Assembly: GCA_035297365.1 (NCBI GenBank)
Contig: DATGZA010000056.1
Location: forward strand, 1 to 42,934
From: Nitrososphaeraceae archaeon
Lineage (GTDB): Archaea > Thermoproteota > Nitrososphaeria > Nitrososphaerales > Nitrososphaeraceae
DNA: 42,934 nt
Direction of reading: 5' to 3'
Part shown: positions 2,246-34,808 of the stretch, one piece after another
Layout of the letters: each line of letters begins with the position of its first letter
Position numbering within the stretch: position 1 is the stretch's first letter
Program-made: the position numbers and the translations under genes
The notes under the pieces: model-generated
What the model was told of the DNA's origin: nothing
Seen by the model: the letters and a program-made list of their open reading frames with translations, nothing else
The model's database searches: none

Positions 2246-3082
2246 TTATGTTCCATATTTTACTCCACTTGAAACAATCGATCTTATGCATTCAAGAGCT
2301 GACAATATCGCTAAGTAACTAGTTCGTGGATTTTTAGAACTAGGAATATTCTTTACCATGATTATCAATTCTCCGAATTTGCCTGTTACTTTTATTTCGT
2401 GTTTATTAATTCGAATAGATGGATCTACTACGATGTTAACTTTGGTTTTTTCAACGCCTAAACCTACTAGCCCCAAAAGTGCGGCTACGTTGACATTAGT
2501 GGGAAAATACTTGACAGCTTCAACTGCAGAACCTTCAAAAATAATAGTCCTTTTTTTTAATGAATCCAAATCTATTTGCGATGTTTGAAAAAATGGAGCC
2601 CCCCGAAGTGATTCTGGATTTTTGGTTGTCGTCAGGGTTACTGAACTAATAAAATTCCTTGTGCTTTTTATAGCATCAATTCCTGCTATAGCTCCGGATG
2701 GGACATAAATATTGTTTTCGTATTTCGCAACATATTTGAGTATATCCGCATAAAAATTAGAATCAGCAAAAGATCCCACACTCATAACCAAAATATCTTT
2801 TCGTTCAGATAAAATTTTTCTAATGTATGCTTTAACAGCTTCTTGTGATGCCGATTCTATCACTAGGTCCACTTCTTTAAAGGATTTGGAATTGACATAA
2901 TCTAAAAAATTACCATAGAGTTCTGGAGAATTATTTTTTAGGATAGAGCGTAAATTTTCGGCATATTCTAAATTTAGATCAAATAGAGAAGATATTTTTA
3001 CCTTGTCAACTAACTCTGAATCAATTGAAAGGGCCAATTCACTTCCAATTGCACCGCAACCAATTATCGAAATTTTTTTCAT
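2246..3082 (-). CDS. nadX: L-aspartate dehydrogenase
   Basis: GCGAIG Rossmann motif, PSGAIAGID, FPTNVNVAA and NPRTSYLA; adjacent to nadA. Confidence 0.92.
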   Translation of the reverse strand: MKKISIIGCGAIGSELALSIDSELVDKVKISSLFDLNLEYAENLRSILKNNSPELYGNFLDYVNSKSFKEVDLVIESASQEAVKAYIRKILSERKDILVMSVGSFADSNFYADILKYVAKYENNIYVPSGAIAGIDAIKSTRNFISSVTLTTTKNPESLRGAPFFQTSQIDLDSLKKRTIIFEGSAVEAVKYFPTNVNVAALLGLVGLGVEKTKVNIVVDPSIRINKHEIKVTGKFGELIIMVKNIPSSKNPRTSYLAILSALECIRSIVSSGVKYGT

Positions 3083-3291
3083 TAGTATATTTCTAATGTA
3101 TTTGTAAAGTAAATTAATAGATTTCTGAAAATTCTAACATTTTAATATCGTAGATCATGATTTTCGAATTACGCAATTGATTTAATGTATTCGTGTCTCA
3201 TAGCTGTATATTTATAATAAAATGCCTTTTGGTAATTATCAATAAATAAATGTGTTACCAATAAGCGACATAATATTATATTTTATGGAAA

Positions 3292-4242
3292 TCATCCAAT
3301 TGACAACATTCTCTCAATTGCCAGTCTGGCGTTGTCTGCAATTTTTCTTGGAACCTGAACTTTATATACATTATTTAATAGTGAATTATATACTTTCTCT
3401 ATCGTTATCATTTTCATGTATTTACATACAGCATCATTTTTTAATGGTATGAAATTTTTGTCTTGATTTTCTTTTTGCATTCTGTAAAGTATTCCGGTTT
3501 CTGTGGCGATGACAAATTCATTATTTGTAGAACTCCTAGCATGTTTCATCATTCCTTCTGTAGATAAAATGTAACCAGTTTTCTGAAGATCTCCCATTGC
3601 CATATGATACATCGTAGATGATGTGCAACTACATTCAGGATGTACCAAAAAGTCTGCTTGTCTATATTTTTTTAATACCGAATTGATATCATCAGATTTT
3701 ATCCCCGCGTGAACGTGACACTCTCCTGCCCAGATAAACATATTTTTTCTTTGAGTTATTTTTTCTACATATGCTCCCAAGAACATGTCAGGAAGAAACA
3801 GAATCTCTTTATCCTCAGGAATACTATTCACAACTTTAACTGCATTGGATGATGTGCAACAGTAATCTGAAAGAGCCTTAACCTCTGCGGACGTATTGAC
3901 GTAACTTACCACTACAGCGTTGGGATGTTCTTTTTTCCAATTTTCCAACTCTTTTGAGTTAATTGATGATGCTAAAGAACATCCTGCGGAAAGATCCGGA
4001 ATAAGAATAGTCTTATCTGGACAAATAATTGACGCAGTTTCTGCCATAAAATGAACACCGCAAAAAATAATTGTTGTCGCCTTTGTTTTTTCTGCTTGCC
4101 TTGAAAGCGCTAATGAATCTCCTATAAAATCAGATATATCCTGCACTTCTGGAAGTTGGTAGTTGTGTGCAAGTATTACTGCATTCCTTTCTTTCTTTAA
4201 CGAAAGTATTTCTTCAAAATACTGTTTTTTTGATAAATTCAT
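3292..4242 (-). CDS. nadA: Quinolinate synthase
   Basis: LAHNYQ, GDSLALS, CGVHFMAE, GCSLA, CHVH, HPEC and C-terminal Fe-S cysteine motifs. Confidence 0.97.
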   Translation of the reverse strand: MNLSKKQYFEEILSLKKERNAVILAHNYQLPEVQDISDFIGDSLALSRQAEKTKATTIIFCGVHFMAETASIICPDKTILIPDLSAGCSLASSINSKELENWKKEHPNAVVVSYVNTSAEVKALSDYCCTSSNAVKVVNSIPEDKEILFLPDMFLGAYVEKITQRKNMFIWAGECHVHAGIKSDDINSVLKKYRQADFLVHPECSCTSSTMYHMAMGDLQKTGYILSTEGMMKHARSSTNNEFVIATETGILYRMQKENQDKNFIPLKNDAVCKYMKMITIEKVYNSLLNNVYKVQVPRKIADNARLAIERMLSIG

Positions 4243-4391
4243 TTACTTTAGTATGAGAAGGTATATGAAAATGATCATTTAAAGTAGTACTATCTAGGAT
4301 AACCTTGCCTCAAGAACGCTAACAACATACAAAGATTGCCACTTTACTTGTAATACATTTATTAAGAGATACTGAATATTTAAAGACAGAA

Positions 4392-4571
4392 ATGCCAACT
4401 CACGGATCGCTTACTAAAGCAGGAAAAGTTAAAGGTCAAACGCCAAAGGTTCAAGCAAAGGAGAGATCTAGTCCTATTTCAAAGGTAAGGAACAAGGATA
4501 ATTTCATAAAAAGGTTTGAGAAAAGAATTCCACCTGGACAGAAGAAACCAGAGCGAATGAGAAGAAGATAA
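4392..4571 (+). CDS. rps30e: 30S ribosomal protein S30e, 59 aa
   Basis: Hand translation [24 protein letters not shown]...; HGSLxxAGKV..QTPKV is the eS30 signature. Below the ORF-track length cut-off. Confidence 0.95.
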
Positions 4572-4603
4572 CCCTACCTGTATGATTTTATAAAGTTTAA
4601 TTT

Positions 4604-5473
4604 CTAATTTACAATTTTTAAGCTAAAATCCAAGGCAGGAGAAGAATGCGTCAATTGGCCTATCGAGATGATGTCAGGTCTAGAAATAGCATACTTTGAA
4701 ATATTTTCTAATGTTATCCCTCCCGACACTTCTATCTTGACCTTGTCTCTGAGACCCAATTTAGCAATTTTTAAGATTGTTTTCTTAACATTTGAAGGAG
4801 AAAAGTTGTCTAACATTATTATATTAGCACCTGAATCTATTGCTTCTAAAGCTCCAGATAGGTTCATTACTTCGCACTCTATTTGAATTGATGAGCCTAC
4901 TCTTTTTTTAATAAACGGTATCAGTTTTGATATAGACTTTTCAATTTGAAGATGGTTATCTTTTATCAGTACCATATCATCAAGTCTTAAACGATGAGTT
5001 GTTCCTCCTCCTACGAGAACAGCCTTTTTATCAAAGATTCTTAAACCAGGTGCAGTCTTTCTAGTAGCAGCTATCAATATTGAAGTGTCTATTTTGCTTG
5101 TTATATCTATAAATTTTCTAGTATTAGTTGCGATTCCGCTCATTCGCATAAGTAGATTTAATGCAGTTCTTTCAACCTTTAAAATATTGTTTGCCTTGCC
5201 TTTGATCTCCATGACTTGCATTTTTGAAGAGAGTTTCATTCCGTCTTTTGCCATACATTTTGTATCACAACCGAACATCTGAAATAGAATTTCGCTTTCT
5301 TCTATCCCACAAAGGATTCCAGGTTTTTTAGACTTATAGGTTATTACTGCAGAAACTACTTTATCTTTAAATCTTAGATTTTCACTGGTAATGTCTCCTG
5401 TGCCAAGATCCTCCTGTATAAAATTTTCCAGGATTTTCCTTAATTCTAAATAATTATATAATTTTCTGGTCAA
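4604..5473 (-). CDS. nadC: Nicotinate-nucleotide diphosphorylase (carboxylating)
   Basis: EDLGTGDITS, ATRKTAPG, HRLRLDD..LIKDNH, IMLDNF and EVSGGIT motifs; start overlaps the spt4 stop. Confidence 0.97.
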   Translation of the reverse strand: MTRKLYNYLELRKILENFIQEDLGTGDITSENLRFKDKVVSAVITYKSKKPGILCGIEESEILFQMFGCDTKCMAKDGMKLSSKMQVMEIKGKANNILKVERTALNLLMRMSGIATNTRKFIDITSKIDTSILIAATRKTAPGLRIFDKKAVLVGGGTTHRLRLDDMVLIKDNHLQIEKSISKLIPFIKKRVGSSIQIECEVMNLSGALEAIDSGANIIMLDNFSPSNVKKTILKIAKLGLRDKVKIEVSGGITLENISKYAISRPDIISIGQLTHSSPALDFSLKIVN

Positions 5474-5658
5474 GAGACTTTTAACGCATATTTGTGTGCC
5501 GTTTTTAATTCTAATGTATGAGCTATTTGAGATTTTTCAGGATCAAATATTATAATAATACCAGACCAGTCGCTTGAAAGTTCCGTTGAATTGCATACAG
5601 CGCATACCTTACCTATAGTGATGGCCTTACATTTCTTACAGGCTAGCTCTTTTGGCAT
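5470..5658 (-). CDS. spt4: Transcription elongation factor Spt4 (RpoE'')
   Basis: ACKKC...CAVC...SSDWSGIIII.DPEKSQIA...YALKV; follows rpoE'. Confidence 0.95.
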   Translation of the reverse strand: MPKELACKKCKAITIGKVCAVCNSTELSSDWSGIIIIFDPEKSQIAHTLELKTAHKYALKVS

Positions 5659-5662
5659 TTAT

Positions 5663-6259
5663 TTACTTTAAACCTCCTTTTTTCTCCTTCGTGGCTTGTT
5701 GTGCTGGTTGTTTTGTTTTTTCCACCTCTTCATTAATCCATTCAAAAGATCCTAAGAAAGGTTGTCTACATGTGATCCCTATTTTTCCCATTGAAGATCC
5801 TTTTCCTAAACTGACAGCGGTTATTCTCGCTCTCATTTTTGAGCCTATCCTTAATGATTTTGAAGACTGGTTTGCAATAATAATACCCTGTTTTATATCA
5901 CTTTTGAGATAATCATCGGTAATTTGAGATAGATGAAGTAATGCATCTGTAGGTCCTACCCTTACAAATGCACCGAAGTCTGTGATTTCAATAATCTCTC
6001 CCTCCACTATTTCTTGAATCTTTGGAAAGAAAGTCAAAGCCTTGAAGGTTACTTTATGATAGGTGGCTCCATCGCCTGTCACTAGTTTACCCACTGAATC
6101 AACTTTAGCGTCTATTATCATTATTACATAGCCTAATTCTTGACTAATCATGCTTTCGTATTTTTCTTTTAAAATACCTATTGCAGTATTTTTGAGCGAG
6201 TCAGTTAATCTATTAGGAGGAATTCTAACAATGTCAGTCATTGAAATAATATAAAACAT
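5663..6259 (-). CDS. rpoE: DNA-directed RNA polymerase subunit E' (Rpo7)
   Basis: DIVRIPP, GDGATYHKV and S1 domain (DFGAFVRVGPTDALLHLSQI). Confidence 0.96.
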   Translation of the reverse strand: MFYIISMTDIVRIPPNRLTDSLKNTAIGILKEKYESMISQELGYVIMIIDAKVDSVGKLVTGDGATYHKVTFKALTFFPKIQEIVEGEIIEITDFGAFVRVGPTDALLHLSQITDDYLKSDIKQGIIIANQSSKSLRIGSKMRARITAVSLGKGSSMGKIGITCRQPFLGSFEWINEEVEKTKQPAQQATKEKKGGLK

Positions 6260-6423
6260 TCTAGACGAATTAGGATATAATATATCAATTTATGAACTTT
6301 TTGTTTAAATAGATCGATATGAGAGGAGATAACCAAGGAACAGTAATTATAATCAAGGTCGCTGTTCCAATTTCGTTTTGTATAAATGAATATTTAAATA
6401 TTGTCGGATATTTTGTTTTCAGC

Positions 6424-7521
6424 ATGGTTACAGTTGATCAAGTTCTTACCTCATTGAAAAAAGTTGTTGACCCCGAATTACATAAAGATATAGTTTCAAT
6501 GGGAATGATCAAAGATCTGGATATTAATAATAATAAAGTATCTTTTACTCTGGAACTTACTACTCCTGCATGTCCATTTAATAGTGAAATAGAACAAGAT
6601 GTAAGAAACACTATTGCCAACTTGGGGGTGGTGGATCTAGATCTTAGAGTTACTGCCAGAGTTATGGAGGGTAGGGCAATATCATTGGACGAATTGTTGC
6701 CTGGAGTTAAGAATATTATAGCAGTCGCGAGTGGAAAAGGAGGAGTTGGGAAAACAACGGTTTCGGTAAATTTGGCATTATCTCTTGCTAAAACAGGAGC
6801 AAAGGTTGGACTTTTAGATGCTGATATCTACGGACCGAGTGTCCCATTGATGTTTGGATTAAAAGATACTCCAATGGTTGAAAAAAATAAGATTCAGCCA
6901 CCAATCGCAGATGGCGTAAAGATAATTTCTATGGGTTTTTTCTACGAACAATCTCAACAGGCTGGAATTTACCGCGGACCGATAATTTCGGGAATAATTA
7001 AACAATTCCTAACTGATGTTAATTGGGGAGATCTAGATTATCTCATCATCGACCTTCCTCCAGGTACTGGAGATGCTCCATTAACTATAGCACAAACCAT
7101 TCCAATAACTGGAATATTGGTGGTTACAACTCCACAAGATATAGCAATGAATGTTGCAGTGAAAGCAATTGGTATGTTCAACAAATTAAATGTTCCAATT
7201 ATTGGAGTGGTAGAAAATATGAGTTATCTGCAATGTCCTCATTGCAAATCTGACATTCATATTTTTGGTACAGGGGGGGGCCTAAAAATAAGTGAACAAT
7301 TCAACATACCGTACCTAGGAGAAATTCCATTGCATCCTCAGATTATGCAAGGAAGTGATACAGGAAAACCAACTGTTATCTCAGAACCTGAATCTTCACA
7401 AAGTCAAGCATTTCTAAAGATAGCCAAATCAGTAGCAGGTAGAATCAGTGTGTTAGCTGCAGAATTGAATAGTCGAGAACAATCTGAACAAGAAACTAAG
7501 AATGAACCTAGTAATTCATAA
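6424..7521 (+). CDS. mrp: Mrp/NBP35 (ApbC) Fe-S cluster carrier ATPase with N-terminal DUF59-like domain
   Basis: DPEL..DIV, LTTPACP, SGKGGVGKT, DADIYGPS, DLPPGTGD, ENMS..CPHC; ATG at 6424 is the likely start. Confidence 0.93.
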   Translation: MVTVDQVLTSLKKVVDPELHKDIVSMGMIKDLDINNNKVSFTLELTTPACPFNSEIEQDVRNTIANLGVVDLDLRVTARVMEGRAISLDELLPGVKNIIAVASGKGGVGKTTVSVNLALSLAKTGAKVGLLDADIYGPSVPLMFGLKDTPMVEKNKIQPPIADGVKIISMGFFYEQSQQAGIYRGPIISGIIKQFLTDVNWGDLDYLIIDLPPGTGDAPLTIAQTIPITGILVVTTPQDIAMNVAVKAIGMFNKLNVPIIGVVENMSYLQCPHCKSDIHIFGTGGGLKISEQFNIPYLGEIPLHPQIMQGSDTGKPTVISEPESSQSQAFLKIAKSVAGRISVLAAELNSREQSEQETKNEPSNS

Positions 7522-7535
7522 AAATAAGTTAAAAA

Positions 7536-8081
7536 ATGCCAGTAAAAGAAAAACATTTAAGTATTTTAAAAAAGCCATTTGGAGATCTAATAAGAAAGGA
7601 AAACATCACTAAAGAGAGTATAATAAAGATAATTAACAGCTATAAGGACGACAACCAGACAAGCATAGTTACTGTTGGTGATGCAACCACGGAAAGAATC
7701 TTATCATTTGGTATTTATCCGAAAATAGCAATAATTGATGGCGTAGAAAGAAGAATAAGGAGACCAGAACTAAAGAATTCAGAAATAATAAAAGCTTATT
7801 CAAATAATAATAAAATAAAATTTTATAAATGTACTAACAGACAGGGAACTATCTCAAAAGAAGCCTATGATATAATAAAAAAAATAATCGAGAGGAATGA
7901 AGATGCAATGGTGTTTGTAGATGGAGAAGAGGATTTGCTAGCGCTACCAGTTTTTGCATTGGCTCGAGACCAATCGGTGGTTCTTTATGGACAACCATTA
8001 GAAGGAATAGTCGTAGTAAAGATAGATAACAAATTAAAGAAAAAAGCGCAAGACTTGTTAGATAGTATTGGATTTAGTTAA
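7536..8081 (+). CDS. GTP-dependent dephospho-CoA kinase (DUF359 family)
   Basis: LKKPFG, TVGDATT, VDGEEDLLALP and YGQP.EG motifs. Confidence 0.88.
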   Translation: MPVKEKHLSILKKPFGDLIRKENITKESIIKIINSYKDDNQTSIVTVGDATTERILSFGIYPKIAIIDGVERRIRRPELKNSEIIKAYSNNNKIKFYKCTNRQGTISKEAYDIIKKIIERNEDAMVFVDGEEDLLALPVFALARDQSVVLYGQPLEGIVVVKIDNKLKKKAQDLLDSIGFS

Positions 8082-8442
8082 AGTGCAGGGAATGATGATG
8101 TGGTGGCTGTATGAATAAAAACTACATGATTAAAGATACCATTTTCTGACCCTTTAAGGAAATAAATATTAGTCATATAAAAAAAATTAAACAGCATCGA
8201 ATTTTTTATTTATCACATCCACAACCATCTAGCTCATTTTCACTAACCGAAATGTTATACAATTTCATACATTTGGAACAGAGACTATAACCGGAAAGCG
8301 CTTTAGAATTACAGAAGGAACAGGTATTTACTGTTTCATTACGCATATGTTATGTTATGTTATCTTTTTAATTAATTTTATCATCCTCATACGAATCAGC
8401 AACTAAAAAATACATGGTATATTAAGTGAAATTGATAAGTTG

Positions 8443-8592
8443 CTATTTAGATTGATAATGACATGTACAATGGCATTTAGTCATTTTTATATCAAATGAA
8501 CAGTCATGATTTGGACCACATATTTCTTCGACCGGCATCTCTAATGGACAGTCGGAATGTCTCTCTCTTTTGCAAAAAAAAGAAATCACCAT
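8443..8592 (-). CDS. 49-aa Cys/His-rich microprotein (CxCxCH C-terminus)
   Basis: Hand translation MVISFFCKRERHSDCPLEMPVEEICGPNHDCSFDIKMTKCHCTCHYQSK. Confidence 0.7.
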   Translation of the reverse strand: MVISFFCKRERHSDCPLEMPVEEICGPNHDCSFDIKMTKCHCTCHYQSK

Positions 8593-8831
8593 ACCTATTA
8601 GATAAAATCAGTAAAACTTATTTTAAGTATTCTGCTCTTGGTGCTTGATTCCTGAATTTATTACGCACTTAAATTTTTTCATAAAATAAATATATTGTAT
8701 AATAACAGACATCATCAATCAAGAATATCAACACTGTCGAAAATCAAGATACAAAAAATCTCTAATACACATCCAATGATAAAGTCAATTTGTGAGGAAA
8801 TTTATAAATAATAAATTTCTGAAATAATTAA

Positions 8832-9095
8832 TCATATATCAATATTGAATAACTGCGGTGCATAAATTGACCCTTCCCTGACTCTTTTTACTTTGGCAAC
8901 TGACAAATAATGTGGCCAGATGGTAATCATTATGGAACCTTGTGGCACGCCTTCAGGAACCTCAATAAGCTCAATATCTTGCAAGACGACGCCGCAATCA
9001 TCGACTAACTTGGATTTGGCTACTTCTATCAATTCTTTGGGCATTCCACTGCTGTAAAGATACACTTTACCAGAATATTCTATTCTGTGTTCCAT
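8832..9095 (-). CDS. Hypothetical protein, 87 aa
   Basis: Clean ATG ORF with globular composition and higher GC than the flanks. Confidence 0.75.
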   Translation of the reverse strand: MEHRIEYSGKVYLYSSGMPKELIEVAKSKLVDDCGVVLQDIELIEVPEGVPQGSIMITIWPHYLSVAKVKRVREGSIYAPQLFNIDI

Positions 9096-9207
9096 CTACT
9101 AATAATGAAAGAGATGGATTATAAAATGTAATTGGAGCTTCAATATAGAAGCCTCACTTTAAGAATAGATAGTATTTCAAATAATCACTACCACTGGCAA
9201 GTAGAAA

Positions 9208-9378
9208 TTATAACTCATCAATATGATATTTAGACATACAGCCTCTACATTCATAGATTTCATCCCCCACTGGGCCGGAAACATTAAATCTTACTATAGT
9301 TGTGCATTTTGGACAACGTCCTTCAACGCTTCTAGTCTTCCGTTGAGGCTTAATGGTGCGCCTTTTTCTACTTCCCAT
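9208..9378 (-). CDS. 56-aa zinc-ribbon microprotein with basic N-terminus
   Basis: Hand translation MGSRKRRTIKPQRKTRSVEGRCPKCTTIVRFNVSGPVGDEIYECRGCMSKYHIDEL; CPKC...CRGC. Confidence 0.8.
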   Translation of the reverse strand: MGSRKRRTIKPQRKTRSVEGRCPKCTTIVRFNVSGPVGDEIYECRGCMSKYHIDEL

Positions 9379-9507
9379 CTTATAATCTTACTAGAACTTT
9401 ACTATTACTCTCTTTTATAAACTTCGTTAAGATCAATTGCAAATAGTAAGAAAAATCTCTAAAATTGCTATCAGTTAGATTATAAAGCCGAAAATATAAA
9501 ATTATTT

Positions 9508-9792
9508 GTGGCATTACCAGATAAATGCTCCTACTCTTCAAAAAAAATTAGATGTATTATGCCTCCGTCATATATAATATCGATTCAGAGTAACGATGAA
9601 TTTTTGGTTGGAATGTCATGTGAAGACCACTATGAATTCATAAAAAGGAAAATTGAATTACTACAAAAAACAAATTTACTCCCAAAGGGAAAAATAAAAA
9701 TACAAAATATTAGAATGATATCAACAAATTGTATAAAAGGTACAAAAGAGGATTATGAAGAAGTAATATCTCAACGAGAAATAGAATTTTAA
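9508..9792 (+). CDS. Hypothetical Cys-containing protein
   Basis: 94-aa ORF with a C..C..C..H arrangement; no family recognised. Confidence 0.7.
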   Translation: MALPDKCSYSSKKIRCIMPPSYIISIQSNDEFLVGMSCEDHYEFIKRKIELLQKTNLLPKGKIKIQNIRMISTNCIKGTKEDYEEVISQREIEF

Positions 9793-9814
9793 AATTCCAA
9801 GATACAAATCTTTA

Positions 9815-10807
9815 TCATATTAATGCATTTTTACTATTTTTGTTAACAAGAAACAGTGGAGATTTACCCTCAAAGATATTATATATATTGAGTGCCGCAA
9901 CTTCTGACATTTTGGATCTGGTTTGTATAGTGGCGCTGCCAATATGGGGAAGAATCACAACATTATTAAATTGCAACAAGCGATTAGATTTTTTTAGTGG
10001 TTCGGATTCAAAAACATCTAATCCTGCTCCTGCTATCCACTTTTTGCCTAGTGCGACAATAAGAGATTTTTCATTAATTACCGATCCTCTTGATGTATTT
10101 ATTAAATATGTATTTTTATTCATCTTTTTAAAATCATTTATATCGATTAAATGATAATTTTCTTTTTGTAGACTCACATGGATTGAAAGAAAATCACTAT
10201 TGTTTAATAATGTATCTTTGTCTACAAAATTAACCCCAAGTTTTTTTTCTTTATTTCTATTTAATCTATGTCTATTATGATACAAGATATTCATATTAAA
10301 TCCTCGTGCCCTTCTCGCTACTGCGGTACCTATATTTCCTAATCCAAGAATTCCTAATGTAGAATTAAAGATGTTAGTTCCAAGAAACAAATTTGGCATC
10401 CAACCATAGTTCCACTTTTTGCTTAAAACATATTTGTTTGCCTCAACTACTCTTCGTCCTAAAGCAAGAATAAATGCAAAAGTCAAATCTGCTGTAGCCT
10501 CAGATAATATATCTCCTGTATTAGTAACATATATTCCCCTCTTTGTGGCTTCGTCTACATCAATGTGTTCATATCCTGTACTAAAAGTACTTATTACTCT
10601 TAGGTTATCACCCGCAGCATCCATTACGTCAGAATCAATTCTTTCGGATAAAGTGCATACGATCGCATGAACATTTTTTACTCTCTTTAGTATTTCCTTT
10701 TTAGAGGGAGATGTATGTTTAAAACTCATAAAAACACTATATTTTTTTCTCAACAGATTAATTCCCGTTTCATCTATTCTACGTGTAACGTAGATTTTTT
10801 TTATCAT
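9815..10807 (-). CDS. D-2-hydroxyacid dehydrogenase (glyoxylate reductase/D-glycerate dehydrogenase)
   Basis: GLGNIG, INTSRG, LDVFESEP and PHIGSAT; start trimmed to MIKKIYVTR (10807) to avoid overlap with the divergent gene. Confidence 0.9.
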   Translation of the reverse strand: MIKKIYVTRRIDETGINLLRKKYSVFMSFKHTSPSKKEILKRVKNVHAIVCTLSERIDSDVMDAAGDNLRVISTFSTGYEHIDVDEATKRGIYVTNTGDILSEATADLTFAFILALGRRVVEANKYVLSKKWNYGWMPNLFLGTNIFNSTLGILGLGNIGTAVARRARGFNMNILYHNRHRLNRNKEKKLGVNFVDKDTLLNNSDFLSIHVSLQKENYHLIDINDFKKMNKNTYLINTSRGSVINEKSLIVALGKKWIAGAGLDVFESEPLKKSNRLLQFNNVVILPHIGSATIQTRSKMSEVAALNIYNIFEGKSPLFLVNKNSKNALI

Positions 10808-10917
10808 TATATTATAATTAACTTCATGTAATATTATTGAATTCCTAGCAAATAACAATAATAAAAAGAAGAAAGAAAGAATTAACAACCAGAGATTAGG
10901 ATATTTCTTTAATAAAG

Positions 10918-30183: not shown

Positions 30184-30925
30184 TATCAAACTGGCAATTG
30201 ATTCATTTATTCATCATAATTAATTGATCGTTTTGATATTTTAAAGAATATTTGGGTACACAATAAGAAGTTTACTGCCAGTATTTTTGACCATATTCTT
30301 TATTATTCAACATTACCGGGTTTATATACTGCAAAATTTCATTTTCATAGGCTAAAAGACATAATGATTTAATATTAGGGTTATTTTCACTTAAAAGCCA
30401 ATCGTCCTTTGGAGGTTCTAGTAATTTCGGTTGCTCTGTATATATAACATACCAAGTTTGTGAATATAACTTTTATTTTGTCAACACAGATTGAAATTTT
30501 AACGATTTGGAAATAGGCAGAGAAGAAGGTCATAAATGTGTAAAACTGCGTCAGTGTGTTCGATGCTATGTGCAATAATATTACCCATTTTACGTTCTAT
30601 GTTAGGTTTGATTGTCTCAATTATCCTTTTGCTTCTCAATTTTTTTTAACCGGATTTTCTTGATTTAAAATATCATTCAAGATCATAGTCAAATACAAAT
30701 TCATCGTTGGTTATATCGACACACAGATTTTATAAAATCATTAGATAAGAATTTTTTGTATGTTTGAGTAAATTCTTGTTTATAATATTCTTTCAAATAA
30801 ATAACATATTTGAAAATGATTAGACCTTAACCCATTTATTTAAACACTTATATAATCCATAAAAGAATTTTGAAATTCAAGGAATAATCCTGAAGGATAA
30901 TTATTATAATAAAGAAAAATTAAAG

Positions 30926-30984
30926 GGTTCTGTTAACTTGTTAGGCGATAAGCCATAGTTTTTGACCAGTTAACCTTCGGGTGA
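30926..30984 (+). repeat. Left bipartite inverted end: 23-bp TIR + 20-bp spacer + 16-bp inner IR (GTTAACCTTCGGGTGA)
   Basis: Both blocks are exact reverse complements of blocks at the right end. Confidence 0.93.
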
Positions 30985-31794
30985 TGATTTTTTATTTTCA
31001 TAGGATTTGTCATTATTTAAAATAACTTCTGCATCTTTAATTGTAGGTTCTGTTTGTTTAACAGTATTTAATAGGTTCATAGATTTTATCTTTTTAAGCA
31101 AAATTTCAAGAACACTTTTTGCTAATTCTAATGTATCTTCATCCGTGATTTTGATACTACCTATACCTTTGGCGGATAAAACACCAAATTCATTTTCCAA
31201 TCGTTCATCGGGATAGTGAATAGACGAATCAATAGTAAATTGTTGATTTTGCATAATCTGTTTATTATTATATTCGTCAGTGTTATAGCTTTTCTGTTTA
31301 TTTTGTTCAAGTATCTCATCAGGAATTATTGATATATCTTCCAGATACCATTCTCTTATTTGCTTTTCTTTCTTTTCTATTTCTAACGGTTCAGCATTTG
31401 TTATATTACGTAATTGAGAAAATAAACTATCAGGTATGTTCTTTTGTATCCTATCATAGAGTTTTTTCCACAATTGTACATTGAATATTGCCTGTTTTTG
31501 GATACTTGATTCCTTGACTTTTTCTGGGAATAGAATATCTTTTCCAAGTTCTTCAATTTTATATTTGCCTCTTGAGATTGAACTAATAAGACCGTAAATC
31601 TCCATACTATATATTTTTCTTGGTAAGCCACTGGAGGTAGGTGATGCATATTTCAAATATCTCGCAACATCTTGCATAGTAAAGTCACGATTTCCAATAT
31701 TATTTTCATAAATTTCTCTCAAATCAGGAATTAGATTTAGAAACCTTATCATTGGTATTTCATAAGTTCCTATTTGAAATCTCTCTGAAGGCAT
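30970..31794 (-). CDS. IS passenger protein, probable N-terminal winged-helix domain
   Basis: DVARYLKY..PTSSG.....SMEIYGLI.....GKYKIEELG resembles a wHTH; stop codon lies inside the inner inverted repeat. Confidence 0.75.
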   Translation of the reverse strand: MPSERFQIGTYEIPMIRFLNLIPDLREIYENNIGNRDFTMQDVARYLKYASPTSSGLPRKIYSMEIYGLISSISRGKYKIEELGKDILFPEKVKESSIQKQAIFNVQLWKKLYDRIQKNIPDSLFSQLRNITNAEPLEIEKKEKQIREWYLEDISIIPDEILEQNKQKSYNTDEYNNKQIMQNQQFTIDSSIHYPDERLENEFGVLSAKGIGSIKITDEDTLELAKSVLEILLKKIKSMNLLNTVKQTEPTIKDAEVILNNDKSYENKKSSPEG

Positions 31795-31862
31795 TTACTT
31801 AGAATACGTAATTCATCCTAATAAGTTTACTTATTTTGATAGAAATTATAAGTATAATATGC

Positions 31863-31919
31863 ATACGTGAAAAAGTTTAAAAAACGTAAAAGTTAAATAA
31901 TATACGTTATATAAGTTAT
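31863..31919. promoter_or_regulatory. Divergent promoter region with three ~20-bp spaced ACGT...AAGTT repeats and a TATA-like box (TTATATAA, 31907-31914)
   Basis: ACGT at 31865, 31884 and 31904, each followed by AAGTT. Confidence 0.4.
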
Positions 31920-31926
31920 CTGAGAT

Positions 31927-32004
31927 AGAAACTCCTCGGCATAGTGCTCCGTTGGGCTGTCAACTCGGACGGATGCTGTGTAAGTCAGCACGAGGAGACC
32001 TTCT
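31927..32004 (+). ncRNA. Putative structured RNA (four-way junction, tRNA-like geometry) upstream of the transposase
   Basis: CTCCTCG/CGAGGAG closing stem, GCA/TGC, TCCGT/ACGGA and TGCTG/CAGCA arms; 39 of 66 bases are G+C, within AT-rich flanks. Confidence 0.6.
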
Positions 32005-32083
32005 GTTTTGCAACAAAAGATGAAAGTCAAATGATATATACGTAAACCCAACTATTAAGTTTTCTCTTAGAGAAAGCAAAGGA

Positions 32084-33160
32084 TTGGCAATTGCCAATTC
32101 CAATAGTCATATATCAAGAATTGATGACCATTCTTACAAGGTAAAATCTCAATCATCCAATAATCAATATGATGTATTTTCTACAGAATCAGGATGGTCT
32201 TGTTCTTGCCTTGATAATACATACAGAAAGGTAACCTGTAAGCATATTTTTGCCGTTCAGTTCAGTCTTAATCTTAGAAAGGAAGTTCAATCTACCTTAA
32301 CAATTGAACAATTAGACACTTTATCATGTATTTTCTGCCATTCAGAACATTTTGTCAAAGATGCAGTTAGACATAACAAATATGGAGATATTCAACGATA
32401 TCTTTGTAAAGATTGTGGTAAAAGATTTTCATTTAATGTTGGATTTGAAAATATGCGGGCAACTCCACAGATAATTACATCTGCTATGCAATTATACTTT
32501 AGTGGAGAATCATTCAGGAACGCAAGAAATTTCTTAAAGTTACAAGGAGTTAACGTTAGTCATGTTGCAGTTTACAAGTGGATTAAGAAATATGTTAATC
32601 TGATGGACAAGTATCTTGAAAAAATTACTCCAAATGTTTCTACTGTCTGGAGAACTGATGAACTATACCTGAAAGTAAAAGGTAATAAAAAATACCTTTT
32701 TGCTTTAATGGATGATGAAACAAGGTTCTGGATTTCTCAACAGGTAGCAGATAAAAAGAATACAAGTGATGTTAGACCATTATTCAAAGAAGGTAAAGAA
32801 ATAGCACAGAAAAGACCTAGTGTATTGATTAGTGACGGAGCACCTAATTTTCATGACGCCTACAAGAAAGAATATTTCACATTGAAAAATCCGAGAACAA
32901 AACACATCAGATATATCAGGTTACAAGGAGATAACAATAACAATAAACAAGAACGTTTCAACGGTGAAATTCGTGACCGTGAAAAGACAATGAGAGGCTT
33001 GAAAACAGTTCACACATCCATATTGAAAGGGTATCAGATTTATCACAACTATATTAGAGAACATGAAGGCTTGAACGGACAAACACCTGCCGAAAAATGT
33101 GCAATTACTATTGAAGGAAATGATAAATGGAGAACGATAATTGAAAATGCAAAAAAATAA
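32084..33160 (+). CDS. IS6-family DDE transposase with N-terminal SWIM finger and zinc ribbon
   Basis: CSC...CKH (SWIM), CIFC...CKDC, HTH, WRTDELYLKV, LISDG and NNKQERFNG; frame is open from 32024, so the true start is uncertain. Confidence 0.92.
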   Translation: MAIANSNSHISRIDDHSYKVKSQSSNNQYDVFSTESGWSCSCLDNTYRKVTCKHIFAVQFSLNLRKEVQSTLTIEQLDTLSCIFCHSEHFVKDAVRHNKYGDIQRYLCKDCGKRFSFNVGFENMRATPQIITSAMQLYFSGESFRNARNFLKLQGVNVSHVAVYKWIKKYVNLMDKYLEKITPNVSTVWRTDELYLKVKGNKKYLFALMDDETRFWISQQVADKKNTSDVRPLFKEGKEIAQKRPSVLISDGAPNFHDAYKKEYFTLKNPRTKHIRYIRLQGDNNNNKQERFNGEIRDREKTMRGLKTVHTSILKGYQIYHNYIREHEGLNGQTPAEKCAITIEGNDKWRTIIENAKK

Positions 33161-33229
33161 CACTACAAATCATGGTCTACGACATTATCGAATTTTCGAT
33201 TCTAACGTAGTAGGAGGTGAAAGAAAGTA

Positions 33230-33292
33230 ATGAGTTGTTCATGCAGAAGAGTAAGAGTTCGACGACATTTCAGGCGAGTTTGTAGACGTTAA
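33230..33292 (+). CDS. 20-aa Arg/Cys-rich peptide MSCSCRRVRVRRHFRRVCRR
   Basis: Perfect SD GGAGGTGA (33213-33220) 9 nt upstream of the ATG; strongly biased composition (9 Arg, 3 Cys). Confidence 0.55.
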   Translation: MSCSCRRVRVRRHFRRVCRR

Positions 33293-33308
33293 ACCGACCT
33301 CCTAACTA

Positions 33309-33347
33309 ATTGAAGCCCTAAACTTCAATAACCCCACTTATTTTTTT
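33309..33347 (+). terminator. Hairpin (ATTGAAG/CTTCAAT) followed by a T7 tract; likely end of the peptide transcript
   Basis: Inverted repeat at about 33309-33329 and TTTTTTT at 33341-33347. Confidence 0.4.
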
Positions 33348-33412
33348 AGATATATTAACTATATTCTCAGCTAAATTTGTTTCGTTAAGGTATAATATTT
33401 TATATTCAATTG

Positions 33413-33471
33413 TCACCCGAAGGTTAACACCTTGAAGATTTTCACTTGTCGCCTAACAAGTTAACAGAACC
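33413..33471 (-). repeat. Right bipartite inverted end of the IS6 element
   Basis: TCACCCGAAGGTTAAC (33413-33428) + 20 bp + TCGCCTAACAAGTTAACAGAACC (33449-33471). Confidence 0.93.
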
Positions 33472-33518
33472 AATTAAAGATTTCTTTTTATTATGCCCCA
33501 GATAAATAGCAATTTTAG

Positions 33519-34808
33519 TTGAAAAAAGTATATCATGACGTTAATGATAGTCTCACAAATCTTTCCGAGATGAATTTTGAAGTTTCTAATAATCAAAAAA
33601 ATTTTCTTGAAAGAGTAGACAAAGTATGTAAATCATTAAGATTAAATGAAGAAAAGTCTTATCTGAGAGGATCAATAAACGAAAAACTGATTCCAGAATT
33701 TAGTAAAATAGGCATGTTGGGTTGTCCTATCTCGAAGAGATTTGGTGGATTGGGATATGATATTTTGACTTATTTACTTGCATTAGAGAGGATAGGTCAA
33801 GAAGGAAGCTCTATGAGGACTTTTTTTTCATGTCATACCTCTATTGGACAGTTGGTCCTACAAATGTGGTCAAATAACGAACAAAAAAGAAGATATCTCC
33901 CAAACACAACAAAGGGTAAAGCGGTTATGGCCTTTGCGCTAACAGAGCCAGAAGCAGGAAGTGATCCGTCCTTAATAAAAACTAGCTTTGAGGATAAAGG
34001 AGATCATTATTTGATTCATGGAAAAAAACATTGGATCGGAAATGGTACATTTGCTAAAATTATAACAACGTATGCAAAAGAAAAGGGAAACAGTAGCTCA
34101 AATATCTCTGCGTTCATTATAGACATGGATTCTTCACATATTAAAAAAAGAGAGATCAAAAATAAAATGGGTTTATTGACTGTTAAAAATGCAATAATAG
34201 AATTTGATAAATGCAAGATCCCTAAAGATAATCTATTGGGGATTCAAGGTCAAGGGTTAAGCATAGCATTTAGCGCCCTGATAGATGGTCGGTTGAGTGT
34301 TGCTGCAGGAGCGATTGGAGTCATGACTGATTGCCTACAGCAAGTGGTAGAATATTCAAAAAAAAGATATCAACACGGTTCTCTTCTAGCAAACAAACAG
34401 TTAATTCAACGACATATAGCTAAAATTGCAATTTCGATAGAAACTACTAAATGGGTTACCTACCGTGCAGCCATAGCCAAACAAAAACTCAATGATTATA
34501 TCGAATCTCTAAAACAACATGATGAAAAATGGATAATGAAATTAAATAGAAATAACAAAATTTATTCGGGCTTGAGAAGAGAAAGTGACAAATTGGCAGC
34601 GATGGCCAAACATTATGCAACAAACTCATCTTTCGATGTTGCAAATAGATCTGTTCAAATTTTTGGTTCTGAAGGATATAAGAAAACCTCAAGAGTGGCC
34701 AGACATTTTCTAGATTCCAGAGCCACTACAATATACGAAGGCCCAAATGAAGTGATAGAGTTAAAGATAGCATCTGAAATATTGGGAAGTAATTTCAACG
34801 CATATTAA
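33519..34808 (+). CDS. Acyl-CoA dehydrogenase family protein
   Basis: FALTEPEAGSD, GKKHWIGNG, QIFG..GY and TIYEG.NEV; ATG at 33570 is an alternative start. Confidence 0.93.
   Translation: MKKVYHDVNDSLTNLSEMNFEVSNNQKNFLERVDKVCKSLRLNEEKSYLRGSINEKLIPEFSKIGMLGCPISKRFGGLGYDILTYLLALERIGQEGSSMRTFFSCHTSIGQLVLQMWSNNEQKRRYLPNTTKGKAVMAFALTEPEAGSDPSLIKTSFEDKGDHYLIHGKKHWIGNGTFAKIITTYAKEKGNSSSNISAFIIDMDSSHIKKREIKNKMGLLTVKNAIIEFDKCKIPKDNLLGIQGQGLSIAFSALIDGRLSVAAGAIGVMTDCLQQVVEYSKKRYQHGSLLANKQLIQRHIAKIAISIETTKWVTYRAAIAKQKLNDYIESLKQHDEKWIMKLNRNNKIYSGLRRESDKLAAMAKHYATNSSFDVANRSVQIFGSEGYKKTSRVARHFLDSRATTIYEGPNEVIELKIASEILGSNFNAY

Follow-up and report, generated by a model that had tools for sequence, protein, structure and literature searches.

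A cargo-carrying IS6-like transposon of a Nitrososphaeraceae archaeon with a tRNA-like RNA upstream of its transposase gene

What is the mobile element that occupies positions 30926-33471 of the Nitrososphaeraceae contig DATGZA010000056.1 (assembly GCA_035297365.1), and why do a GC-rich structured RNA and a divergent gene for a 274-aa protein stand beside its transposase gene? From our analysis of the whole 42,934-nt stretch (the window) and of related loci, the element is a recent copy of an IS6-like cargo transposon, in which a tRNA-derived RNA probably acts in cis as a promoter-plus-leader of the transposase gene and the 274-aa protein, a predicted winged helix, probably acts as a repressor. 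The tRNA-like RNA is the most unusual part of the element; its structure is well supported by comparison of copies, and its role is one that we infer. An earlier, sequence-only reading of this DNA had described an IS6-type transposon with four internal modules, namely a winged-helix passenger, a structured RNA, a SWIM-DDE transposase and an Arg-rich micropeptide.

Boundaries and mobility of the element

The ends and the flanking duplication were read directly from the window and give a length of 2546 bp. The terminal repeat GGTTCTGTTAACTTGTTAGGCGA returns as its exact reverse complement at the other end, and an imperfect likeness between the two ends extends to about 59-64 bp inward. GGTTCTGTT opens both ends and provides the GG start and cTGTt motif, as in IS6, and the inner box recurs at both ends 37 bp inward of the terminal GTTAAC. 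The perfect 23-bp inverted repeats, the 8-bp duplication and the length given in the sequence-only reading are borne out by these data, and so are the positions of its three open reading frames (ORFs) of 274, 358 and 20 aa, listed here and in the sections below. The boundary features are the following.

30918-30925, no strand: left target-site duplication AATTAAAG; single copy at the empty site of genome G017, and a metagenome joint 30917>33472 with 8 shared letters
30926-30989, plus strand: left end, two-part, with the perfect 23-bp terminal repeat (30926-30948) and the inner box GTTAACCTTCGGGTGA (30969-30984)
33408-33471, minus strand: right end, two-part, with the inner box (33413-33428) and the perfect 23-bp terminal repeat (33449-33471)
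33472-33479, no strand: right target-site duplication AATTAAAG; 40 bp 5' of an acyl-CoA dehydrogenase ORF at 33519

Two genomes of the same genus hold the site without the element. In G017:C3 the flanks are contiguous (...ataataaagaaAATTAAAGatttcttttt...) with one AATTAAAG exactly at the junction, and in G014:C29 they are uninterrupted (...aaaaaATAAAGatttcttttt...) with AAATAAAG at the junction. Three soil metagenome runs of one study (X1-X3) yielded contigs joining 30917 to 33472 as well as other contigs spanning the left and right element junctions; these alleles are assembled contigs, and nothing was inferred from depth. Filled and empty alleles coexist, because junction-crossing and empty-joint contigs occur in the same runs. 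Two of the metagenome runs also contain slightly altered versions of the element, with indels at 32022 and 32034 among the changes. The element is an intact copy, recently inserted and demonstrably mobile, and the single-copy empty site that the sequence-only reading had proposed to look for in related strains was found. In the element's own genome (110 contigs, 97% complete) the element, the transposase and the 274-aa gene are each present once. On other contigs the same genome carries two short transposase-like remnants (G000:C48:737-841 and G000:C63:19197-19550), one of them with four in-frame stops.

An archaeal transposon family in which cargo appears to be the rule

The transposase gene was assigned from Pfam, NCBIfam and an alignment of 51 family sequences.

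32084-33160, plus strand: IS6-like transposase, 358 aa, TTG start

The protein scores 55.9 bits against DDE_Tnp_IS240 (Pfam PF13610; cut-off 27), 29.7 bits against the NCBIfam IS1/IS1595 zinc domain (cut-off 28) and 18.7 bits against Pfam SWIM, just under the cut-off of 19.6. Its best NCBIfam transposase model is transpos_IS6 (NF033587), covered over positions 1-201 of 202; because the score of 110.2 bits lies below the cut-off of 125, we class the protein as a distant IS6-like branch and not as an equivalog of the curated IS6 transposases. The SWIM finger CxC...CxH (C40, C42, C52, H54), a zinc ribbon CxxC...CxxC (C82, C85, C108, C111) and the residues D192, D251, E290 and R297 are invariant in all 51 aligned transposases; the last four are presumably the catalytic D, D, E triad followed by K/R, with the spacing familiar from IS6. 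Likeness to the relatives continues a few codons 5' of the TTG, where the window has no start codon. The SWIM-DDE transposase in an IS6-type, gene-carrying element, as put forward in the sequence-only reading, is supported.

Relatives were sought with a single transposase query in one genome per prokaryotic species, 398 were confirmed by tblastn, and the analyses of loci use the best 80 of the 398. Their transposase identities range from 58 to 71%, and their assemblies are labelled as Nitrososphaerales, Nitrosotalea, Nitrosopumilales, Bathyarchaeia, Asgard, Methanoperedens and Thermoplasmata, with a few labelled as bacterial. An initial expression for IS26-type ends was unproductive on nearby relatives, and a looser motif combined with a duplication test succeeded: the gene had to be enclosed by a GGNNCTG end pair in which 15 or more of 20 end bases match, and by an 8/8 duplication. 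On this basis 49 loci were delimited by an end pair and a perfect 8-bp duplication, three had an end pair without duplication, and 28 had neither, many of these 28 being on short contigs. The delimited elements measure 1983-6126 bp (median 3275). All 49 carry cargo, in 45 cases with a non-transposase ORF of at least 100 aa. Because each has a single transposase gene and a single end pair, they are unlikely to be two ordinary insertion sequences (IS) of 0.8-1.3 kb on either side of host DNA; passenger genes lie within one end pair together with one transposase gene, as in a transporter IS or unit transposon. The two-part ends also recur: gapped alignment detected a significant second, inner copy of the terminal motif in 73 of 100 family ends, superseding an ungapped 12-mer test that was weak (15 of 100), and the inner motif is offset by 27-28 bp in 65 ends and by 37 bp in 22.

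The cargo is diverse. Type I/IIG-like methylase, specificity and HSDR_N genes occur in seven elements, and an N4/N6 methylase fused to an Mrr-type nuclease occurs in two. We also found GmrSD-HNH and a ShosA-like DprA protein adjoining a ParB_N protein (Shosta-like), weak PIN and HicA matches under the Pfam curated cut-offs, GNAT, CBS and proteasome-like proteins, and one nested IS. Most cargo proteins have no family assignment. In 27 of the 49 elements the closest ORF 5' of the transposase is divergent and of at most 110 aa, several of these being of AbrB/MazE, ribbon-helix-helix (RHH) or zinc-ribbon type (Pfam). These observations point to a large, widespread and apparently undescribed archaeal family in which cargo is the rule, an aspect that the sequence-only reading had missed. 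A family so widely spread (Nitrososphaeria, Bathyarchaeia, Asgard, Methanoperedens and Thermoplasmata assemblies) and always loaded with cargo, often restriction-modification or other defence genes, suggests a compact vehicle of gene transfer between archaeal phyla. It could also furnish small self-contained transposons for archaeal genetics.

The closest transposase relative (L022/L039; same genus, 71% identity) belongs to an element of 2515 bp with the duplication TAAATTTT (AAAATTTA on L039, the same contig reversed), quite different accessory genes and neither the RNA nor the 274-aa passenger. Because among the 49 other delimited elements L077 alone has both, and L039 has neither, we regard the RNA and the passenger as variable accessories and not as the family core. 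In the sequence-only reading, modules absent from related elements would count as incidental captures. This applies by half: the RNA and the passenger are accessories, but they are not incidental, as RNA, passenger and transposase are arrayed identically in the genomes of four other species (a further locus, L162, holds the RNA and a transposase remnant only).

In the IS6 review of Varani et al. (2021; PMC7986276) most members measure 700-890 bp and the longest 1230-1760 bp, with one ORF each; clade h is described as zinc-finger transposases of 340-350 aa from Clostridia, and one passenger-carrying member, ISDsp3, is listed among about 160. The present family resembles clade h in its IS240/IS6-type DDE domain, 8-bp duplication, GG-starting ends with CTGT, N-terminal CxxC zinc finger and length of ~350 aa, and differs from it in the extra SWIM finger and in archaeal instead of clostridial hosts; from IS6/IS26 altogether, clade h included, it differs in that all 49 delimited elements measure 2.0-6.1 kb, with cargo and two-part ends. 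ISDsp3 (Dehalococcoides) is likewise of IS6 type with a passenger inside its ends; as described in the review, it is set apart as a single case with one hypothetical gene, whereas here cargo is a family trait, diverse and often defence-related. Harmer and Hall (2019; PMC6807381) hold that archaeal and long 'IS6' elements should be separated from IS6/IS26, and Krupovic et al. (2019; PMC6563490) describe thaumarchaeal IS-like transposons of 1-2 genes and report that archaeal DNA transposons with passenger genes were not detected. The Tn3-family transposons with toxin-antitoxin pairs in their transposition module (PMC7157771) are similar as unit transposons with cargo and with small antitoxin-type DNA-binding genes beside the transposase control region; unlike them, the present elements encode a transposase of another superfamily branch, lack both a resolvase and a res site, are far shorter and come from archaea, and their toxin partners are mostly unidentified. 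Our search of the open-access literature turned up no archaeal IS6 cargo transposon, no SWIM-IS6 in archaea and no tRNA-like transposase leader. The element appears to work as an IS6-type transposon does, but because it exceeds the IS6 size range, holds more than a single gene and scores below the equivalog cut-off, we assign it to a separate archaeal lineage of IS6-like unit transposons.

Several loci offer observations of their own. An ORF that by eye resembles IS1595/ISXO2 transposases adjoins a sister element in G017:C8 (L023, 2000-2857). The L163 locus (4694-10862; G150:C22) holds one whole and two partial IS6-like transposase genes inside 6 kb; its RNA-bearing element is 3038 bp long with ends identical over at least 26 bp and without a target duplication, and L165 is a 1612-bp relic with perfect ends, also without a duplication. 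The ends of L163 and L165 are compatible with inter-copy recombination or cointegrate resolution, without proving either. A tRNA-Thr(GGU) gene lies near L094, L114, L097 and L099, at 0.66-0.85 kb outside an element end in L094, L099 and L114 (L097 has no delimited ends), and tRNA-Glu and tRNA-Asn genes lie 46-60 bp from an element end in L043 and L110. Elements near tRNA genes may reflect an insertion preference.

A tRNA-like RNA ahead of the transposase gene

Upstream of the transposase gene the GC content rises to 0.47 (31900-31999) from a background of 0.20-0.36. The segment would fold into an RNA with the following parts, all on the plus strand.

31932-31998: tRNA-like RNA, 67 nt; covariation, and 81.5 bits with our covariance model R1
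31932-31938 with 31991-31997: acceptor stem CTCCTCG/CGAGGAG, 7 bp
31939-31947: mini D hairpin GCATAGTGC, 9 nt
31948-31973: long anticodon-like arm
31974-31990: T arm, 5 pairs and a 7-nt loop
31998: discriminator A

Taken alone, the window segment folds modestly better than shuffles (z -2.4). Rfam gave no relatives for it, a hit to AniS at E 0.55 and two long non-coding RNA models at E ~6 being taken as chance, and blastn against all gathered loci with a search of 401 genomes of the class gave just 20-30 nt matches to the AT-rich 3' flank. Relatives of the RNA were found by position and structure and not by DNA similarity. At the same position L077 (Nitrosotalea) has an unrelated GC-rich sequence whose acceptor stem pairs perfectly over 7 bp and whose T arm is canonical; it matches the tRNA-like Rfam model mascRNA-menRNA (RF01684) at E 0.0013 with 28.3 bits, under the gathering score of 42.5, and the window RNA does not match that model, so that neither is a member of that family. 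Three more copies lie upstream of transposases (L143/L163, L144/L164 and L138/L165), and a sixth, L162, was found by the covariance model in 151 genomes of the class.

Common to all six RNAs are the acceptor stem of 7 bp, a mini D hairpin of 9 nt that reads GCAURGUGC in four, an anticodon-like arm of 9-10 bp with a 7-nt loop, and a T arm of 5 bp, also with a 7-nt loop, that directly adjoins the 3' strand of the acceptor; the discriminator base is A in five of them. RNAalifold reports compensatory change in 12 of 18 pairs. In the alignment A4, 84.8% of cells pair, against 35-50% with slid partners, and none of 500 shuffles reaches the covariation score, though A4 was fitted to the model and holds six sequences only, both of which inflate the covariation figures. 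We consider it well supported from these comparisons that the GC-rich segment encodes a real structured tRNA-like RNA. The folded RNA of the sequence-only reading is upheld by the covariation across loci, and its likeness to tRNA had been missed there. ARAGORN called no tRNA gene in the window or at any of the six RNA sites, and Rfam gave no tRNA match; against the full cloverleaf with a normal D arm of a tRNA, the D region here is 9 nt, with the acceptor stem and T arm present. The anticodon-like loops of three relatives read CUCGUAA, CUGGUAA and CUUGUAA (Thr anticodons CGU, GGU and UGU), and that of the window reads CUGUCAA.

Related RNAs are few. Model R1 recognised the RNA in 5 of 98 sources scanned (the window, L077, L138, L143 and L144) and in 4 of the 151 genomes of the class, the window's own included, L162 being known from that search alone. 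A 120-nt stretch with the RNA in G170 is identical to L077. At least 120 metagenome stretches matched the pattern GGCATRGTGC-N28-36-GTTCRAATC; among the 80 metagenome loci returned the model recognised one true copy, L232, which is the L163 DNA at 99.98%, and no new independent example. Two metagenome loci (L180, 1257-1331; L240, 10956-11029) hold weak tRNA-like matches (35-40 bits with R1) of another kind that share the GGCATGGTGC box and whose canonical T arm ends ...TCCACC, with no transposase or 274-aa gene nearby. L073, labelled Methanoperedens (element 2553-5123), has a full predicted tRNA-Thr(UGU) of 89 nt at 3472-3560 upstream of its transposase, which R1 does not match. In the window and L165 copies the mini D loop (UGG to UAG) has changed together with the T loop (UUC.. 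to UGU../UGC..), at 31939-31947 and 31979-31985 in the window. These positions are the sites of D-loop/T-loop contact in real tRNAs, and the joint change may be one inherited event. Two other interpretations of the segment were discarded: a C/D-box sRNA, rejected by eye as neither strand has an RUGAUGA box, and a nested insertion flanked by an 8-bp ATACGT-type repeat, as the 128-bp insert would have no inverted ends.

The position of the RNA is constant. It lies always on the transposase strand, just upstream of the gene and abutting its ribosome-binding site, and on its upstream side it is preceded by AT-rich, promoter-like DNA in which several TATA-like boxes occur. The distance from the end of the RNA to the transposase start is 29-33 nt in L163, L164 and L077, with a common AGGAGTGT box between, and sister elements without the RNA have no AGGAGTGT box before the start codon. 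A scan for sigma-70 promoters and intrinsic terminators was set aside as unsuited to archaea. The state of the three parts at each locus is as follows.

Window: 274-aa gene whole; RNA whole, with an odd T loop and the AGGAGTGT box absent; transposase whole, TTG start
L077: 274-aa gene truncated (197 aa); RNA whole; transposase whole
L163: 274-aa gene, RNA and transposase all whole
L164: 274-aa gene, RNA and transposase all whole
L165: 274-aa gene whole; RNA acceptor pairing lost; transposase remnant
L162: no 274-aa gene found within 1.5 kb; RNA D region 15 nt longer; transposase remnant

In this small sample the integrity of the RNA tracks the transposase and not the 274-aa protein, and because of this we prefer a role in cis in transposase expression. 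Other transcripts contain comparable shapes: the 't-elements' of Haloferax, cut by tRNase Z, and the mascRNA of MALAT1 are tRNA-like processing signals, and the present RNA is predicted to resemble them in its tRNA shape, acceptor stem and T arm, reduced D/anticodon region and location inside a longer transcript. Structured RNAs beside a recombinase gene inside an IS are also familiar as the bridge RNA of IS110 and the omega RNA of IS200/IS605. To our knowledge every member of those families has such an RNA, which pairs with the element's ends or with the target; unlike them, the present RNA is confined to few members, has the shape of a tRNA and is not complementary in excess to ends or leader.

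Possible roles of the passenger protein and the RNA

The protein that would complete the control region is encoded divergently from the transposase.

30970-31794, minus strand: 274-aa passenger gene; predicted winged helix and helical domain; 3' end overlaps the left inner box
31804-32043, plus strand: four ATACGT boxes (at 31804, 31863, 31902 and 32038) in the divergent control region, candidate operators

Pfam, NCBIfam and PADLOC give no match for the 274-aa protein. An exhaustive profile-free search returned 226 cluster representatives (E<=0.001), mostly of 220-270 aa and conserved over residues 7-160. An AlphaFold2 model built with 60 relatives (mean predicted local distance difference test, pLDDT, 84) predicts a winged helix at 18-80 (H-H-H-wing, pLDDT >95), then a helical domain that reaches residue 166, and, beyond a disordered linker, a beta-hairpin with a long helix, in line with the winged-helix fold of the sequence-only reading, though as a prediction only. 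Foldseek with this model found nothing in the PDB at E <= 0.001, its winged-helix matches being weak (E 0.02-0.15). VIA-align ranked the FokI recognition domain (Z 8.0), N.BspD6I (7.5) and BrxA (7.3) best, with winged helices of the MarR/IdeR type at Z 5-6, and a Z of 7-8 lies within the range also reached by models without a true match. The ESM Atlas gave unnamed clusters only, with DUF5343 at 0.87 as a lead and no more. On the model, the passenger is probably a DNA-binding protein. Its family occurs in 31 of 401 genomes of the class, and because it mostly stands alone, without transposase, RNA or end pair, it looks like a host-type gene captured by some elements: 14 full-length loci lack a transposase, the RNA (13 scanned) and an end pair within 1.5 kb. 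At the two loci read by eye, L129 and L136, the neighbours of the homologue look like housekeeping or metabolic genes.

The candidate operator sites are concentrated beside this gene. ATACGT has 12 matches on both strands of the whole 42.9-kb window, four of which fall within these 240 bp and on one strand, and two elements with small divergent genes (L047, L068) have arrays of TACGTA-type palindromes in the same control region. In the mechanism that we favour, the RNA would derive from a captured tRNA gene, of which the Thr anticodon loops in three relatives would be a remnant, and would act in cis as a promoter-plus-leader cassette, with transcription beginning at or just before it. Host RNase P and tRNase Z would recognise the helix of acceptor and T arm and remove the RNA; the cut would fix the 5' end of the transposase mRNA, and with it the stability and translation of the message. 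The winged-helix protein would bind the four ATACGT boxes and repress the divergent promoters, a role that small AbrB/MazE, RHH or zinc-ribbon proteins apparently fill in 27 of 49 sister elements. The tRNA-like leader would in that case be a testable example of a transposon recruiting a host RNA-processing signal.

Several points weigh against this mechanism. The RNA is known from six loci, most family members do without it, and RNA-sequencing runs were searched for the element with none listed as containing it. In the window itself the AGGAGTGT box is missing, the TTG start stands 85 nt after the RNA and the T loop UGUAAGU is non-canonical; here the cassette may be decaying. The TATA-like boxes of the AT-rich DNA upstream are several, and no single start site is fixed. 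In a FastTree of 51 transposases (support values not inspected) the RNA-bearing elements do not form one clade, and therefore the module was either lost many times or exchanged between elements. The inflation of the covariation figures and the unspecific range of the VIA-align scores, given above, belong on the same side.

Conceivably, a tRNA-Thr gene was captured with its flanks and is now carried passively, decaying and without present function. The predicted tRNA-Thr(UGU) of L073 shows that such capture happens, and the absence of any ARAGORN call among the six RNAs, the shrunken D arm, the non-canonical T loops of the window and L165, the acceptor pairing gone from L165 and the many family members without the RNA are in keeping with decay. 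Yet 12 of 21 modelled pairs have changed on both sides with pairing kept, the T arm is 96.7% paired across copies although the transposases of the RNA-bearing loci are only 51-59% identical to that of the window, the shortened D hairpin is kept in most copies, and the position before the transposase start is fixed. Because neutral decay would not retain helices over such divergence, we disfavour passive carriage and regard it as quite unlikely. A trans-acting cargo module made up of the RNA and the 274-aa protein, of benefit to host or element independently of transposase expression, seems to us similarly improbable; the RNA might then mimic a tRNA or act as a decoy for anticodon nucleases, or else be the protein's RNA partner. 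The two are adjacent at five of the six loci and stand beside transposases of different tree branches, as if moving as a unit; much of the identifiable cargo of the family is defence-related, and three of the RNAs still have an anticodon loop of Thr type in which U33 and A37 are retained. The protein family, however, mostly occurs alone, as the 14 loci above illustrate, in L077 the protein gene is truncated and the RNA intact, the RNA keeps to the transposase strand and abuts the ribosome-binding site of that gene, and conservation of the anticodon loop does not extend to the window or L077.

The sequence-only reading had inferred a regulation or maintenance system based on the RNA and the peptide, which bears on two features downstream of the transposase gene.

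33213-33292, plus strand: GGAGG box, ATG and 20-codon ORF MSCSCRRVRVRRHFRRVCRR; box and ATG conserved, peptide not
33310-33347, plus strand: hairpin, CCCC box and T run, terminator-like; the box aligns in the window, L077, L164 and L165, and the hairpin is in the minimum-free-energy fold

In such a system the Arg-rich peptide would be a toxin that maintains the element under control of the structured RNA, much as in type I toxin-antitoxin pairs. The ORF (33230-33292) follows a good AGGAGGT box 10 nt before its ATG (the two span 33213-33232), this box pairs with a downstream ACCUCCU in the minimum-free-energy fold, as in some type I toxin mRNAs, and L077 keeps a 15-mer of the purine box unchanged (TAGGAGGTGAAAGAA; the BLAST match spans 16 nt). 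In four elements a GGAGG box and an ATG can be aligned, but the ORFs behind them measure 20, 43, 7 and 2 codons without any similarity, and shuffled sequences fold as well as this region (z 0.05). The RNA is encoded 1.2 kb from the peptide ORF, on one strand with it, and its complementarity to the peptide region shows no excess, 204 of 300 shuffles binding at least as well. The Arg-rich ORF is probably not a gene, the maintenance system built on it lacks support, and we give this explanation hardly any weight. The box of CCCC and T run looks like the end of the transposase transcript. The most far-reaching alternative is that the tRNA-like RNA is an active regulator posing as a pre-tRNA, which ties transposase output to host tRNA processing or charging and possibly forms an RNA-protein switch with the winged-helix protein, within an unrecognised, phylum-crossing family of transposons that carry defence genes. 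We hold this to be unlikely; if true, the element would represent the first lineage of DDE insertion sequences with an active tRNA-derived control RNA. Among these explanations the tRNA-derived leader in cis, with a winged-helix repressor, remains the one that we favour.

The element also meets its surroundings at both ends. At the left, the final codons and stop of the 274-aa gene (30970-30984) overlap the inner repeat box, and transposase binding there could disturb transcription of the gene, or the reverse. Downstream of the right end, the ORF at 33519-34808 has three Acyl-CoA_dh domains (Pfam), and the insertion probably cuts this acyl-CoA dehydrogenase gene off from its promoter or provides it with an outward-reading one.

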